DNA of 63,765 nt, filler included, from Deltaproteobacteria bacterium (GTDB taxonomy: Bacteria > JAUYMQ01), in assembly GCA_030698575.1 (NCBI GenBank). It is 15 parts of 15 records of this genome, joined end to end, with 100 filler letters (N's around TTAATTAATTAA, not from the genome) between each part and the next. Parts side by side here need not be neighbours in the genome. Positions count along the whole stretch, not along the records: positions 23,069 to 26,350 come from JAUYMQ010000317.1; positions 26,451 to 34,399 come from JAUYMQ010000322.1; 13 more parts are not named here. One strand, written 5' to 3'. Made by a program: the position numbers and the translations under genes. Below, piece after piece: positions 374 through 26,520 of the stretch (position 1 is its first letter; each line of letters opens with the position of its first letter). Below the pieces are notes generated by a model. The model was not told where the DNA came from. It was given only the letters and a program-made list of their open reading frames with translations, and did no database searches.

Positions 374-1945
374 ATGGCCTGCGTATTCTACAGCCCCGAA
401 GCTTTCTCGGATGATCTCCGGCGCGTCATCCTGGCCAGCCGGAACGCTCACGCCGTCCGGGCCTGTCTCCTGACGACACGCGACCGAGACCATGCGTTCA
501 CCTGGCTGAAGCAGGTCGTTTCGGACGCCGACTGGCCTCTCTATGGCTTCACCGTCGCAGCGCGGCGCCGCTACAACTTCGACAAGCTCAAGTGGGAGGC
601 CGTAGGCGGGGAGTCGTCCGACACGCTCGGCCTGCTCCGCCATGCCCAGGAACTGCGCAACGGAGCAGTGGTCGTCCTCGAGGATTGCGCGGCGTTTCTT
701 CGCGACGAGGGCGGCGACCAGCGCGTGCGCATGAGTCTAGCGGAAATGCTTTCCTCCGAAACAATAACCGAGGGTCTCGTGCTCGTGTTCCTCGAGCCAC
801 CGGAGGCCGCCGGTCGCTTGCCGGCCATACTCGCGGACCAATTCGTTCGGCTCGAGGTGCCGTACCCGCGCGCCAGCGAATTGGAGGCGATAGCGCGAGC
901 CGAGCTCTCCATCGCCGCGCATCATGCGCGTGTACCGATGGACGTCGAGAGCATCCGCGAGAAGGCCGAGTACCTGGCGAGGGAGCTAGCCGGCCTTACT
1001 CGGACCGCCGCCCGCGACGCCTTGCGGGATGCGCTCGCGCCTAATCCGTCAGACCTTGACGCGGCCTTCGCCCGTCTTCAGCGTCGGAAGGCCCTTACCC
1101 TCCGAGAATCACTGGGGATGAACGTTCTTGATACCCTGGACGTCGAGGAACCCATCGGGCTCGATTATCTTTTTGAATACATCGAGGTTATTCAGCCCAA
1201 GCTTCTGGTGACTGGCGAAGAACGCGCTAAGGGGATCTGGCTCATAGGCCCGCCCGGTACGGGTAAGACAATGATTGCGCGGAGCATAGGACGACACGTC
1301 AAGCTCCCCGTGGTGGAGTTTCGGGTTTCGTCGCTGATGAACTCGCTCCTTGGCGAGACCGAGAATAGATTTAGGCGAGCATTTGCGACGCTGGAGGCCA
1401 TGAGTCCGAACGTGGCCTTGATGGACGAGATCGAGAAAGCGTTCGGCGATTCGTCCGAGCGGGACGGCGGCACCATGATGCGGGCCACCGGGGCGCTGCT
1501 TTCCTGGCTTTCGGATAACCCCCATCCGAACTTCATCGTCGCGACGTCGAACAGCCTCCGGCGCATGGGGGAGATCGGACAAACGATGACCCGCTCCGAA
1601 CGGTTCGACGCGTTCTTCTTCGTCGACGTGCCCTGCCTGGATTCGAGGCGGCGCATGCTCGAGCGCTGGCTCGCCGACAGGATGCCCAACTGCGACGCAG
1701 CCGCCGATGAACTCGCTCAGCTGACTGAGAAATTCTCGGGGGCCGATCTACGGTCACTGGTCAAGCGGGCAGTCAGATGCGCCGAGCATGACGACGTCGT
1801 GCTGACACTGGACATGGTAAAGACCCAAGTCGAGCGCAAGCGCATGCGCGCCCTGGCGCTCTATGACGAGTTCCAGGAGCTCCGTCGCTGGGGAATGAAG
1901 CACTGCGAGCCGGCAGGACTGACGGATACGCGAGGACTTCCATGA
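374..1945 (+). CDS. Ycf46-like (SpoVK/Ycf46/Vps4 family) AAA+ ATPase
   Basis: Walker A GPPGTGKT, Walker B ALMDEIEK, sensor VATSN, arginine-finger region RSERFD, lid FSGADL; degenerate N-terminal ATPase-like domain; AAGGA RBS. Confidence 0.88.
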   Translation: MACVFYSPEAFSDDLRRVILASRNAHAVRACLLTTRDRDHAFTWLKQVVSDADWPLYGFTVAARRRYNFDKLKWEAVGGESSDTLGLLRHAQELRNGAVVVLEDCAAFLRDEGGDQRVRMSLAEMLSSETITEGLVLVFLEPPEAAGRLPAILADQFVRLEVPYPRASELEAIARAELSIAAHHARVPMDVESIREKAEYLARELAGLTRTAARDALRDALAPNPSDLDAAFARLQRRKALTLRESLGMNVLDTLDVEEPIGLDYLFEYIEVIQPKLLVTGEERAKGIWLIGPPGTGKTMIARSIGRHVKLPVVEFRVSSLMNSLLGETENRFRRAFATLEAMSPNVALMDEIEKAFGDSSERDGGTMMRATGALLSWLSDNPHPNFIVATSNSLRRMGEIGQTMTRSERFDAFFFVDVPCLDSRRRMLERWLADRMPNCDAAADELAQLTEKFSGADLRSLVKRAVRCAEHDDVVLTLDMVKTQVERKRMRALALYDEFQELRRWGMKHCEPAGLTDTRGLP

Positions 1946-23068: not shown

Positions 23069-23784
23069 CCGCCCGCCGCGGCAGGGCCCTCCTCCCGCTC
23101 GTCCGCATGAAAGGGTTTGCCCGTCTTCAGGCTCGCGGCGCAGGCGTGCCGGGTCCAGGAAATCTCCCGGGGCTCCTGATCGGTGACCACCAGGCCGCGC
23201 ACCGAGCGCAGCAGGAAGCGATCTTCGCTCTCACCTGCCGGGAGCCAGAGCACACCTCCCTGCGCCGAGGTCTCGGCCATGAGGCGCTCGAGGATCGCTT
23301 CGCAAGTATCGTCGGGATCGAGCTTCTCGAGAATCCTGAGTCCGCGCTGATAGACGCCGAGGGAGTCGAGGAAGAAGATGTTCTCGTCGAGCAGCCGCGT
23401 ATGCTCCTGTACGACGGCCTGGCGCTCGAACAGGCGCATCACCACGGCAAGCAGTTCGTCAGGATTGATGGGTTTGGTCAGGAAGTCGGAGGCGCCGCGC
23501 TGCATCGCGCTGGTGGCAACCTTGACGTCACGAAGGCTCGTGACGAAAAGAACTTCGATGGCGGGCCACTTCTCCTTGATGCGCTCGCCCACCCGGACGC
23601 CGTTCTCGCCCGGCATGATCACGTCGAGAATGACCACGTCGTAGGGCGCCCGCTCGAGTTCAGCAAGCGCTTTCGCGCCATCCTCCGCCGTTGTGACGGT
23701 GTATCCCTCGGCGCCGAGGAGATCCTCGTAGAGGACCCGGAAGAAGTGCTCGTCGTCGACCGCTAGAACTCGGCCCCTGCTCAT
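23069..23784 (-). CDS. Response regulator (REC + GAF-like; C-terminus lost at contig edge)
   Basis: VLAVDD, VILDVIMPG, FVTS, FLTKP. Confidence 0.9.
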
Positions 23785-23858
23785 GCAGCCCCCCGATCCT
23801 CTGAAGAGTTCCGTTCTGTTGCCGACCCTGGGGAGGCTCGCCACGGCAGGCCCAGGTC

Positions 23859-23916: not shown

Positions 23917-24414
23917 TCACATCTTATACTTTCCGAAATCTTCGGGATCGAGGTTCTCCAGGATTTCCGCCCACTTGTCCTTCTCATCGTCCGTGAAGAC
24001 CGGCAAGCCCCGCCCCTCCTGGGTGCCCAGCTTCTCGATGACCCGTTCCTCCACGAAAATCGGGGCCTTGGCGCGGAGCGCCAGGGCGATGGCGTCGCTG
24101 GGGCGGGAGTCGAGCAGGTGGGTCTCCTCGCCGGCGCGAACGTGGAGCGTGGCGAAAAAGGTGTCTTCCTTAAGGTCGGTGACGACCACCCGGTCGACCC
24201 GGCAGCCCAGGGCCTCGATGATGCTCTTCAGCAGATCGTGGGTCATGGGCCGGGGAAAGTTCTCCTGCTGGAGTTCGGCGATGATCGCGCGGGCCTCCGG
24301 CAGCCCGATGACAATCGGGACGCAATAGCGCTCCGCCTCGTCCTTCAGCACCAGGAGGGGCACGTTGCCCATCCCGCCCACGACGAGCCCGGCTACTTTC
24401 ATCTCGATTGGCAT
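23917..24414 (-). CDS. Bifunctional nuclease family protein (DUF151)
   Basis: PIVIGLPEA, RPMTHDL, DSRPSDAIALALR; follows miaB. Confidence 0.92.
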   Translation of the reverse strand: MPIEMKVAGLVVGGMGNVPLLVLKDEAERYCVPIVIGLPEARAIIAELQQENFPRPMTHDLLKSIIEALGCRVDRVVVTDLKEDTFFATLHVRAGEETHLLDSRPSDAIALALRAKAPIFVEERVIEKLGTQEGRGLPVFTDDEKDKWAEILENLDPEDFGKYKM

Positions 24415-24438
24415 GATCCCTCCCACGCAGCACGGAGG

Positions 24439-25755
24439 TCAGACAGCCTCGCCTCCGAGCGAGTTGGGAAACGCCTGCAGGATTCGAACCGGTGCGAGCG
24501 TTCCGGCCAGCGCCGGATCTCCGGCGAAGGTGACGATCTTGTTCTGTCCCGTTCTCCCCGCGAGTTTTTCCGGACGGGTCTTGCTCCGCCCCTCGACAAG
24601 CACGTCCTCGACACACCCCACCCGGGAGCGGTTCTCCTCGAAGCCGATGGCCTTCTGCAGCGCGAGCAGGCGCGCCAGTCTCTCCTTGCGAATTTTTTCC
24701 GGAAGCTGGTCGGCGAATTCGGCCGCGCGCGTGCCGCCTCGCTCGGAATAGGCGAAGGTGTAGGCATCTGAAAAACGCACCTCCCGCATGAGCGCCAGCG
24801 TCGCCTCGAAATCCTCCTCGGATTCGCCCGGGAAGCCCACGAGAAGATCCGTCGTGATTGCGATATCGGGCCGCGCCTCGCGAACGCGCGCCACGATCGC
24901 GGCGTACTCCTCCCGGCTGTAGCGGCGGTGCATGCGCTCGAGCACGCGATCGGAGCCCGACTGGACAGGAAGGTGAAGATGAGGGCAGAGGTGCTTCAGG
25001 CGGCGGTAGGCCTCGATGAGGCCGTCGGTGACGTAGCGGGGGTGGCTGGATGTGAAGCGAATGCGGGCTATGCCCGGAACCTCGTCGAGGGCGGCAAGCA
25101 GCTCGTGGAAGGGCATCTCGCCCCGCCGGCGGCCGTAGGCGTTGACCGTCTGCCCGAGGAGCGTGATCTCCTTCACGCCCCTCTCCGCGAGAGCGCGCGC
25201 TTCGTCGAGGATCTGCTCCGGCGGTCGCGAGATCTCGCGCCCGCGCGTAAGGGGAACGACGCAGAAGGTGCAGAAGAGATCGCACCCCTCCATGACCGTG
25301 ACGTATGCCCGGGTGGGATGGCGTGAAAGCGGGATGAGGGTTGAGTCGAAGCGGTCGGCGAGATCGGTCGTGAAGTCCAGGCTGACCACCCCGCGGCGCG
25401 TGGCGGCTTCGTCGAGGAGTGAGGGCAGCTTCAGCATGCTGTGCGTGCCGAAAACCAGATCCACCTGCGGCATCTGCCGGAGGAGCGCCTCGCCGTTCTG
25501 CTGGGCCGCGCAGCCCCCCACGCCGATCAGGAGTTCGGGCTTTGTTTCCTTCAGCTCGCGATAGCGTCCCAGCAACGAGAGGTACTTCTGCTCCGCCTTC
25601 TCACGGATCGCACAGGTGTTCACCAGGATGACGTCGGCTTGCCGGGGATTCTGCGTGACGCGGTAGTCGTTGCGGGAGAGGAGCGCGGCGATCTTCTCCG
25701 AGTCGTGCTCGTTCATCTGGCAGCCGAAGGTTTCGAGATAAAGATACTTTTCCAT
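24439..25755 (-). CDS. miaB: tRNA methylthiotransferase MiaB
   Basis: TFGCQMNEHDS, NTCAIRE, radical SAM CDLFCTFC, HLPVQSG, TRAM domain. Confidence 0.97.
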   Translation of the reverse strand: MEKYLYLETFGCQMNEHDSEKIAALLSRNDYRVTQNPRQADVILVNTCAIREKAEQKYLSLLGRYRELKETKPELLIGVGGCAAQQNGEALLRQMPQVDLVFGTHSMLKLPSLLDEAATRRGVVSLDFTTDLADRFDSTLIPLSRHPTRAYVTVMEGCDLFCTFCVVPLTRGREISRPPEQILDEARALAERGVKEITLLGQTVNAYGRRRGEMPFHELLAALDEVPGIARIRFTSSHPRYVTDGLIEAYRRLKHLCPHLHLPVQSGSDRVLERMHRRYSREEYAAIVARVREARPDIAITTDLLVGFPGESEEDFEATLALMREVRFSDAYTFAYSERGGTRAAEFADQLPEKIRKERLARLLALQKAIGFEENRSRVGCVEDVLVEGRSKTRPEKLAGRTGQNKIVTFAGDPALAGTLAPVRILQAFPNSLGGEAV

Positions 25756-25799
25756 TCAGCTCGCTTTCATCGCACGGATCGGGAACCTTGGTCTTCTGG

Positions 25800-25828
25800 A
25801 GGCTAGCCATCGCCGTGGGGACCGTCAA
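25800..25828 (-). promoter_or_regulatory. Sigma70-type promoter of miaB
   Basis: TTGACG-N17-TAGCCT about 45 nt upstream of the start codon. Confidence 0.55.
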
Positions 25829-26037
25829 GACGAACCGCACCGTGTCGCGCCGGCTGTGCACGCGAGTTCCCGCGCGCCACGGCGTGTGCCCGCCGGAGTC
25901 GTGAGCTCGGATCGCTGCGCCGCGCCCGCCTGCGACCGGCCGCGTGTCCCCCGGAGGATGAGCCTTGTTCACCGCCGCCAAAAGGGGCCTGGAACAGAGG
26001 CAGCGCCAGGCCCCGGGATCCGAGCCCTTCCCGGGGA

Positions 26038-26077
26038 GTGGGAAAAATTTTTCCCACAATGGGAGATTTCTTTCCCA
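26038..26077. promoter_or_regulatory. Tandem palindromic enhancer sites TGGGA-N8-TCCCA
   Basis: Perfect 20-bp palindrome GTGGGAAAAATTTTTCCCAC (26038-26057) and a second copy TGGGAGATTTCTTTCCCA offset by 21 bp. Confidence 0.75.
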
Positions 26078-26134
26078 GATGTCCCGATCCCGCGTGTTCC
26101 GGGACACTCGCTCGGAAGACTAATAACGTCTATA

Positions 26135-26147
26135 TTTCAATAGGTTA
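26135..26147 (+). promoter_or_regulatory. IHF-like binding site
   Basis: TTTCAATAGGTTA versus consensus WATCAANNNNTTR (1 mismatch), in an AT-rich tract. Confidence 0.55.
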
Positions 26148-26175
26148 CATACAAGCTGAGAGGCTGCCTTTCCAC

Positions 26176-26191
26176 TGGCAAGAGAATTGCA
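26176..26191 (+). promoter_or_regulatory. Sigma54 (-24/-12) promoter
   Basis: TGGCAAGAGAATTGCA, exact GG-N10-GC spacing. Confidence 0.8.
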
Positions 26192-26201
26192 GTCAATCTG
26201 A

Positions 26202-26340
26202 CCCAGGAGGAGGCGGTGGTTTATTGGCACCTCATTAATATGGGATTGCCAACCTCTCACCCCCCCCAACGCTGCCCACTGCCTGCTCCTACCTCTTTGA
26301 CGGACCTGGCCGGAAGCGTAAAGTGCGCCCCGGCCGGACG
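26202..26340 (+). ncRNA. Putative sigma54-dependent structured small RNA or leader
   Basis: Starts at the predicted +1; outer helix AGGAG-g-AGGCGGTGG / CCACTGCCT-g-CTCCT, inner hairpin TTGGCA..TGCCAA, unpaired C8 tract, second hairpin 26306-26337. Confidence 0.55.
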
Positions 26341-26520
26341 AAACGGAAGTNNNNNNNNNNNNNNNNNNNNNNNNNNNNNNNNNNNNNNNNNNNNTTAATT
26401 AATTAANNNNNNNNNNNNNNNNNNNNNNNNNNNNNNNNNNNNNNNNNNNNCGCGCGGCTCAGGATGATCGACGAGACTCCGGCGTCGGTTTCCGTGCGAA
26501 GCGTCGTGCCATTCATCGGG

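Follow-up and report, generated by a model that had tools for sequence, protein, structure and literature searches.

The 63,765-nt stretch of DNA analysed here (the window), from the metagenome-assembled genome (MAG) of a Deltaproteobacteria bacterium (GCA_030698575.1), carries a member of a previously undescribed family of small RNAs that is encoded beside miaB across one class of Myxococcota-like bacteria. Two covarying helices, P1 and P2, leave a C-rich sequence of the RNA unpaired. In its relatives the RNA is preceded by sigma-70-type promoters, and in the window by a sigma-54-type element with two upstream dyads of a type that, in related genomes, precedes sigma-54 motifs and PEP-CTERM genes. 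We give a probability of about 0.55 to the reading that this is a conserved small RNA (sRNA) that underwent a swap to a sigma-54 promoter, was recruited into an exosortase/PEP-CTERM-type regulon and acts through its C-rich loop. The window consists of MAG contigs chained by N/TTAATTAATTAA spacers. The locus is the 3′ end of a 3282-nt contig (23069-26350), and the contig end at 26350, reported by the first-pass annotation of this DNA, is evident from the sequence itself, where a spacer follows.

A structured RNA family beside miaB

The first-pass annotation, made from the sequence alone, had proposed an unannotated structured RNA on the side divergent from miaB, with an outer helix (26205-26219 with 26276-26290) enclosing a hairpin (26224-26252), followed by a second hairpin (26306-26337). 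miaB does lie on the minus strand, 494 nt from the RNA when measured from its start, and all three helices were reproduced when 26200-26350 was folded. The minimum free energy of this fold was −57.8 kcal/mol (z = −2.48; 3 of 200 shuffles equally stable), and its unpaired stretch 26253-26275 contains CCUCUCACCCCCCCC. The anchoring gene and the parts of the RNA are as follows.

24439-25755, minus strand: miaB, 438 aa (open reading frame [ORF] and translation), the divergent neighbour that anchors the RNA family
26205-26219, plus strand: P1 5′ strand (GGAGGAGGCGGUGG), from the fold, model alignment and covariation
26224-26252, plus strand: P2 hairpin, from the fold, alignment and covariation; longer than that of the relatives and of other sequence
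26251-26267, plus strand: unpaired invariant loop AACCUCUCACCCCCCCC, from the alignment and model; 8 C here versus 6 C in relatives
26275-26290, plus strand: P1 3′ strand (CCCACUGCCUGCUCC), from the fold, covariation and model alignment
26291-26299, plus strand: second unpaired C/U-rich stretch (ACCUCUUUG), alignment columns 96-110; resembles CUCUCCGACCUCU of one subfamily
26306-26337, plus strand: 3′ hairpin, from the fold; in the position of the relatives' terminator, with no U tail; the contig ends 13 nt on

The search for the family started with BLAST of 26195-26350 against five genomes of MiaB relatives (50-52% identical), which gave short matches in three of them (G001, G002, and G004), a few hundred nucleotides upstream of miaB and directed away from it. 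MiaB-anchored scans of genome and metagenome contigs returned no MiaB more than 52% identical among the matches listed, and relatives of the window MiaB found by tblastn were 47 to 55% identical. A motif search located the element in 12 of the 160 MiaB-anchored loci listed; the MiaB-anchored genomes that supplied loci are labelled Myxococcota, Deltaproteobacteria, Proteobacteria bacterium and, in one case, Spirochaetales MAG. An exact 16-mer, CAACCTCTCACCCCCC, was present in 68 of the 401 genomes in the phylum sample of G002, versus two matches for the reversed control, and occurred once per genome except for one genome with two. The 69 places with the 16-mer and the 12 MiaB loci, less one duplicate, make up the 80 relatives considered here; they hold 76 distinct core sequences, which together with the window form the 77 rows of the alignment (A2).

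A covariance model (R1) recovered exactly the 12 motif loci and the window from 161 sources. Under Infernal's stricter filters it matched 27 of 151 genomes of the phylum sample, with no match in the other 124, and it matched 40 of the 41 sampled genomes of the class of G002 (225 genomes), once in each. With filters off, the window holds a single copy at 26199-26303 (45 bits, E 5e-9) that covers all 99 model positions. It is the second-weakest member, the others scoring 69 to 103 bits and the G068 copy 37.6 bits.

The prediction of an unannotated structured RNA was borne out by these covarying relatives and by comparison with Rfam 15, which returned no family at the gathering threshold. The best match to 25700-26350 had an E of 0.71, and all were far below threshold; the loci of six relatives (36.7 kb) gave no matches, and a scan of one of them (L009) with E up to 10 gave microRNA noise only. 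Sub-threshold matches to sX13 and RsaE fell outside the RNA, in 25980-26076 of the other strand. Neither the signal recognition particle (SRP) RNA (RF00169) nor 6S RNA (RF00013) was listed for the region. Identity with SRP RNA was rejected on the finding that the SRP RNA is located elsewhere in all three related genomes examined; RF00013 matched none of those three, with a model that detected only 5 of 14 control genomes. Our literature searches on miaB-linked small RNA, Myxococcota non-coding RNA and PEP-CTERM/PrsR small RNA found no description of this RNA.

Both helices covary, and the pairing is conserved in homologs. Across the 77 distinct sequences, 96.3% of P1 and P2 alignment cells are paired, versus 40 to 50% when the partner strand is slid, and 9 of 18 pairs are altered on both sides, versus 3.0 in shuffles, none of 500 shuffles being as high. 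A U-A to C-G switch in P1 is seen in 12 of the 77 sequences, and five of the eight P2 pairs are compensated. The conserved fold keeps single-stranded both AACCUCUCACCCCCC and the C/U-rich stretch that follows. The 15-nt AACCUCUCACCCCCC, which lies between P2 and the P1 3′ strand, is identical in all copies found except that of G068, where the loop deviates (...GGUUUCGCCCCCC); the window has it at 26251-26265, lengthened to 8 C. Three copies found with R1 that lack the exact 16-mer (L246, L250, and L257) keep AACCUCUCACCCCCC, so the invariance of the loop is not merely a product of the pattern search. The G068 copy (L264, G068:C171, 441-542), from a lower-G+C genome, is the most divergent member; P1 and the C run are kept and AACCUCUCA is replaced by AAAGGUUUCG, which makes it helpful for telling which loop bases matter.

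In the relatives the RNA has the organization of a free-standing unit, in line with the first-pass annotation's regulatory sRNA, with its own promoter, a terminator and a convergent next gene. miaB is divergent and 200 to 590 nt upstream of the RNA in 77 of the 80, the remaining three being cut by contig ends. A strict sigma-70 pattern (TTGAC.-N16-18-.AT[AC][AC]T) is found upstream of the RNA in 70 of the 80 relatives and not in the window, and most of the remaining 10 have one-letter variants of it, as judged by eye; a promoter scan of L009 gave TTGACT-16-CATAAT. The promoter abuts the core in L184, L190, and L197, and in others the distance to it reaches ~300 nt. By our own criterion, the core is directly followed in 78 of the 80 by a hairpin that is G+C-rich and has a T-rich tail, giving predicted RNA lengths of 120 to 378 nt (median 170.5, n = 68). 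After it comes a convergent gene, which encodes a VWA_CoxE-type protein in at least 41 of 75 loci. In L198 (G020:C213), where the sigma-70 promoter is 239 nt upstream, a long series of imperfect tandem repeats (AAGATCC/AAGATTC units) stands between promoter and core. The MiaB proteins of the family loci are 48.6 to 97% identical to each other (median 64%) and 47 to 55% identical to the window MiaB; these protein identities indicate that the RNA family is old and that the window organism is apparently a deep branch or an outgroup.

Contigs of 4 of the 16 listed sequencing runs (X1, X2, X3, and X8) were compared with the window. A 1054-nt X8 contig, which comes from another study, is colinear with the window and ~96% identical over the RNA, with flanks at most ~85% alike. 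It shows 12 differences from the window in 25711-25851 and 21 differences plus 2 gaps in 25947-26090, versus only 4 differences plus 2 gaps in 26204-26350, and because of these few differences relative to the flanks the RNA is the best-conserved part of the intergenic region. Within the RNA, the differences lie in the P2 loop (26237) and in the C run, which changes in length (26260), and they shift the frame of a GTG ORF considered below. The X1 and X8 contigs extend 305 and 490 nt past 26350, respectively.

The sigma-54-type promoter and its dyads in related genomes

Upstream of the RNA, the first-pass annotation had described two TGGGA-N8-TCCCA palindromes with centres 21 bp apart, an IHF-like site and a GG-N10-GC element, which together would form an enhancer-dependent sigma-54 promoter. 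The elements are listed here.

26039-26056, no strand assigned: distal dyad TGGGAAAAATTTTTCCCA, a putative enhancer-binding-protein site, from its sequence and uniqueness
26060-26077, no strand assigned: proximal dyad TGGGAGATTTCTTTCCCA, ending 98 nt upstream of the −24 element
26135-26147, plus strand: IHF-like site TTTCAATAGGTTA, one mismatch to WATCAANNNNTTR, weak evidence
26176-26191, plus strand: sigma-54 −24/−12 element TGGCAAGAGAATTGCA, the sole TGGCA-N6-TTGCW match in the window
26202, plus strand: predicted transcription start, from the −12 GC at 26189-26190; 4 nt before P1

The sigma-54 consensus is close to TGGCACG-N4-TTGCW, with GG at −24 and GC at −12, and enhancer-dependent promoters of this kind have activator sites ~80 to 200 bp upstream, with an integration host factor (IHF) site or an intrinsic bend between. 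Both palindromes and their spacing were confirmed: TGGGA-N8-TCCCA has these two matches, and no others, on both strands of the 63,765 bases, where 0.07 is expected, and none of 100 shuffles reached two. The dyads stand 98 to 137 nt upstream of the −24 element. The GG-N10-GC at 26176-26191 likewise holds up as an occurrence of TGGCA-N6-TTGCW (one match versus 0.11 expected; 11 of 100 shuffles with at least one). The IHF-like site is present at 26135 with one mismatch and sits in a trough of 40 to 42% G+C, but it is no better than chance, as the window contains 10 one-mismatch matches versus 8.09 expected, a count that 30 of 100 shuffles equal or exceed. Right after the dyads comes a third inverted repeat, TGTCCCG-N13-CGGGACA (26080-26106); its half-sites resemble the dyad half-sites in reversed order, and it forms a hairpin in the minus-strand fold.

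The −24/−12 element ends 10 nt before the 5′ end of the RNA. The promoter-proximal cores L184, L190, and L197 likewise start just before GGAG. Of the 80 relatives, none has a sigma-54-like element adjoining the core, and relaxed dyads lie upstream of the RNA in three, all poor matches; no sigma-70-like site was found upstream of the RNA in the window, and no sigma-54-like motif faces miaB. By these motif searches the window copy appears to stand alone among the 81, both in having a sigma-54-type element and in lacking a sigma-70-type site. When 26030-26350 was compared with the 225 class genomes, BLAST detected no orthologous promoter region and no close relative of the window copy. Among the sequencing-run relatives, the proximal dyad is intact in X8, and X3 has both dyads changed in the spacer only, at 26069 in the proximal dyad; spacer base 26047 of the distal dyad differs in X3 and X8. 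A strain variant in X1, which may be the window's own source sample and so not independent, has seven changes in 26078-26226 and none inside 26176-26191; because ~0.75 changes would be expected there by chance, the intact element carries no weight alone.

Independent support for the enhancer and sigma-54 layout came from related genomes, in which like dyads lie upstream of sigma-54 motifs. BLAST of 26030-26350 gave two 35- to 36-nt matches to the window dyads (86-89% identical), found in G478 and G523, each beside a −24/−12 motif. The exact dyad TGGGAA-N6-TTCCCA has 10 sites in five related genomes, versus none for the reversed control, and for 7 of the 10 a sigma-54-like motif is located 36 to 129 nt downstream, on one side. 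Those seven are all of the sigma-54-like matches in 59,476 strand-bases of the dyad loci, and they fall within 4,000 bases. The genes behind the dyad promoters include PEP-CTERM proteins in L306 and L298, with TIGR02595 above cut-off; proteins in L301 and L314 with C-terminal PEP-CTERM matches only and a visible VPEP/FPEP, transmembrane segment and RR end; a small secreted protein (L302); and a two-gene operon encoding an NtrC-family activator along with a sensor kinase, the activator scoring 425.5 bits against PrsR TIGR02915 (cut-off 502.6) and 478.6 against AtoC. One dyad site in G478 is beside an exosortase gene, and one in G523 is beside a PrsT-like tetratricopeptide-repeat protein with a score below cut-off. 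Prs look-alikes in both genomes score below the equivalog cut-offs.

Two of these loci deserve separate mention. In L316 (G523:C283, 48-3444) the dyad TGGGAAAACTATTTCCCA and a sigma-54 motif precede the kinase and NtrC-type activator operon, which suggests autoregulation and a candidate for the dyad-binding protein, the activator encoded at 48-1412 on the minus strand of L316. In L312/L299 (G478:C137, ~825-1390, minus strand) a dyad and sigma-54 motif stand by the exosortase gene, and no ORF reaches 60 aa over at least the next 350 nt, a stretch that may represent a long leader or a further non-coding transcript.

RpoN-dependent PEP-CTERM genes are reportedly supported by experiment in other bacteria. 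In Proteobacteria, according to Haft et al. (2006) (PMC1569441), PEP-CTERM genes are preceded by an activator site, sometimes repeated, a spacer of ~63 nt and a sigma-54 motif, under the control of PrsR/PrsK/PrsT. The order of activator site, spacer and −24/−12 motif is shared with the window, and the relatives' dyad similarly precedes PEP-CTERM genes and occurs near exosortase, PrsT-like and kinase/activator genes. The two systems differ in the site itself, the 17-nt proteobacterial motif 1 ending in TTTACA with a spacer of mean 62.8 and maximum 92 nt (PMC1569441), compared with the TGGGAA-N6-TTCCCA-type dyad and 98 nt of the window. They also differ in what follows, since the promoter precedes a PEP-CTERM gene in that regulon and an RNA in the window. 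We regard the window promoter layout as analogous, not identical, to that of the PEP-CTERM/PrsR regulon.

Proposed function and competing explanations

The mechanism that we favor can be put as follows. P1 and P2 hold the invariant C-rich AACCUCUCACCCCCC unpaired, with the second C/U-rich stretch after it. In the window lineage the sigma-70 promoter would have been lost, and the sigma-54 −24/−12 element with two TGGGAA-N6-TTCCCA-type dyads would have taken its place. A PrsR-like enhancer-binding protein would bind the dyads and activate sigma-54 RNA polymerase, probably initiating at 26202; such an activator is proposed because in relatives the dyads precede the sigma-54 promoters of PEP-CTERM genes and of a kinase/NtrC-type operon. 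Synthesis of the RNA would thus be tied to the signal that governs the exosortase/PEP-CTERM surface programme, and the RNA would act in trans, its C-rich loop binding G-rich, Shine-Dalgarno-like sequences of mRNAs. C-rich loops of the sRNAs 6C, sX13, and RsaE/RoxS pair with G-rich ribosome-binding sites. Those RNAs likewise present unpaired C-rich stretches by stem-loops; the RNA strand here has no Rfam match, and its C-rich stretch lies in a multi-branch loop closed by a 15-bp helix.

A number of results weigh against this interpretation. Neither rpoN, nor a PrsR-like activator, nor a PEP-CTERM gene was seen in the 63-kb window. The class shows no enrichment of the strict tandem arrangement TGGGA-N8-TCCCA-N2-5-TGGGA (6 of 225 genomes versus 4 control matches). 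The 98-nt spacing exceeds the proteobacterial maximum of 92 nt reported by Haft et al. (PMC1569441), while it is within the 36 to 129 nt of the relatives. In the X8 relative the promoter stretch (26090-26204) has the same length and is diverged, and the left half of the distal dyad lacks one G. In the 68 genomes found with the 16-mer, part of the loop invariance follows from the search itself; only the 12 MiaB-anchored loci and the model-found copies are independent in this respect. Complements of the 15-nt loop, with up to two mismatches, occur in the five related genomes at about control level, except at the RNA gene itself and at a repeat in G133. Pairing of the loop with the miaB translation start is no better than the control (median −11.9 versus −11.1 kcal/mol for the reversed loop). 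A stricter terminator scan of L009 found none, and in the window the 13 nt that separate the 3′ hairpin (26306-26337) from the contig end include no U tail. The repeat in G133 (G133:C1) is a dispersed 15-mer, GGGGGGAGAGAGGAT, present at least 14 times and partly complementary to the loop by chance.

The missing U tail means that the window transcript may run on past the 3′ hairpin, and the sigma-54 transcript could continue into a gene beyond the contig, for example a PEP-CTERM gene, with the RNA as the 5′ part of an mRNA or processed from it. We consider this doubtful, yet a real competitor. A T-rich tail follows the hairpin in 78 of 80 relatives but not here, the X8 relative is conserved through to 26350 in a region where contigs extend 305 to 490 nt further, and promoters of this type normally drive single protein genes with long leaders, both in the relatives and in Proteobacteria (PMC1569441). 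Set against this, the RNA is terminated and the next gene convergent in all relatives with enough sequence, the predicted start 4 nt before P1 is placed as in the relatives whose sigma-70 promoter abuts the core, and the 159 nt that follow the promoter show no ORF start, the one open frame there not being conserved. That frame is the basis of the leader alternative raised by the first-pass annotation, in which AGGAGG at 26206 would be the ribosome-binding site of a GTG ORF at 26216, held in P1 as part of a leader peptide or attenuator. GGAGGAGG is indeed in P1 and the frame is open from 26216 to the contig end; the homologous frame, however, ranges from 2 to 143 codons over the 81 copies, with GCG in place of GTG in 13, it is broken in the X8 relative by two indels (+1 and −1), conservation tracks base pairs rather than codons, and the relatives terminate right after the core. 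This explanation is already contradicted, and we give it next to no weight.

A different objection is that the dyads and the −24/−12 match are not a working promoter of the RNA, either serving miaB or being fortuitous, and that the RNA is made from an unrecognised promoter. Divergence of the promoter stretch in X8, the chance-level IHF-like site, the lack of a visible activator gene in the window and the uniqueness of a sigma-54 promoter among 81 family members are all compatible with it. We judge it improbable, given that 127 kb of strand hold no second match to the element, which ends 10 nt before the RNA 5′ end, that no sigma-54-like motif points toward miaB and no sigma-70-like site lies upstream of the RNA, and that dyads and sigma-54 motifs are strongly associated in relatives. 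The nature of the RNA itself can also be read in another way, as a protein- or ribosome-binding housekeeping RNA whose loop is a protein recognition site, a view that would be compatible with the promoter reading. One copy in 40 of 41 class genomes, a 15-nt loop that is identical while the MiaB proteins of the same loci have a median identity of 64% (48.6-97%), near-consensus strong promoters in relatives and the absence of an extended complementary target in the five related genomes favor such a role, as does the depth of conservation, trans-acting sRNAs being seldom conserved so deeply. On the other side, no partner protein gene other than miaB and VWA_CoxE shows conserved synteny, the size, terminator and single-stranded C-rich stretches suit base-pairing sRNAs, and the RNA is not SRP RNA, which lies elsewhere in all three genomes. 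We find a housekeeping role unlikely, though credible. More speculative, and less probable still, is an ancient class-wide ribonucleoprotein (RNP) or translation RNA in which a conserved cellular component, perhaps one linked to the ribosome or to MiaB-modified tRNAs, recognises the loop, a housekeeping RNA turned into an output of an exosortase/PEP-CTERM two-component system. If true, the RNP reading would couple a core cellular process to surface and biofilm signalling.

Neighboring features, known systems and significance

Downstream of miaB, on the minus strand, are a gene with a bifunctional-nuclease domain (23917-24426) and, after it, a gene with a response-regulator receiver (REC) domain (23069-23844), truncated by the contig end. 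The visible 258 aa of the REC-domain protein include no sigma-54 activator domain, and no GAFTGA-type protein was found among the window proteins. The last 12 to 25 nt of the contig do not recur at any other contig end in the window. In the region separating miaB from the dyads, the minus strand carries a G+C-rich hairpin (GGGGCCUGG...CCAGGCCCC) followed by UUUU (25980-26015). Neither a gene nor a promoter precedes this hairpin on the minus strand, and in the X8 relative its U run and two positions of its stem are altered. We considered and rejected a minus-strand RNA with its 3′ end at the hairpin (25984-26014), as no promoter was found and the hairpin is partly disrupted in X8.

Two known sRNA systems bear comparison. 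Pxr of Myxococcus xanthus and its relatives is an sRNA of ~100 nt with several stem-loops and a predicted sigma-54 promoter with an enhancer site, and all pxr homologs have the activator gene nla19 on one side and a gene for NADH dehydrogenase on the other (PMC5568312). It is thus likewise a small Myxococcota RNA with a predicted sigma-54 promoter and enhancer, and is set apart from the window RNA, which is beside miaB and, in relatives, VWA_CoxE, by its locus (PMC5568312), a distinction of position. The GlmY/GlmZ family of Enterobacteriaceae includes some members with sigma-54 promoters, GlrR sites and IHF and others with sigma-70 promoters (PMC3045617), the same kind of promoter exchange within an sRNA family. 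Sequence, structure and phylum are unrelated, and sigma-54 promoters are the common state in that family, with sigma-70 the exception (PMC3045617), compared with sigma-54 in 1 of 81 copies here.

The family adds a new and easily recognised RNA to a mostly uncultured Myxococcota-like class, with one copy per genome, synteny with miaB and an invariant 15-nt loop. Its promoters offer a natural experiment in promoter exchange, with sigma-70 in the 80 relatives and a sigma-54/enhancer arrangement in the window. Beyond the RNA itself, TGGGAA-N6-TTCCCA is likely to be the activator site of PEP-CTERM/exosortase genes outside the Proteobacteria, a matter left open by Haft et al. (2006) (PMC1569441).

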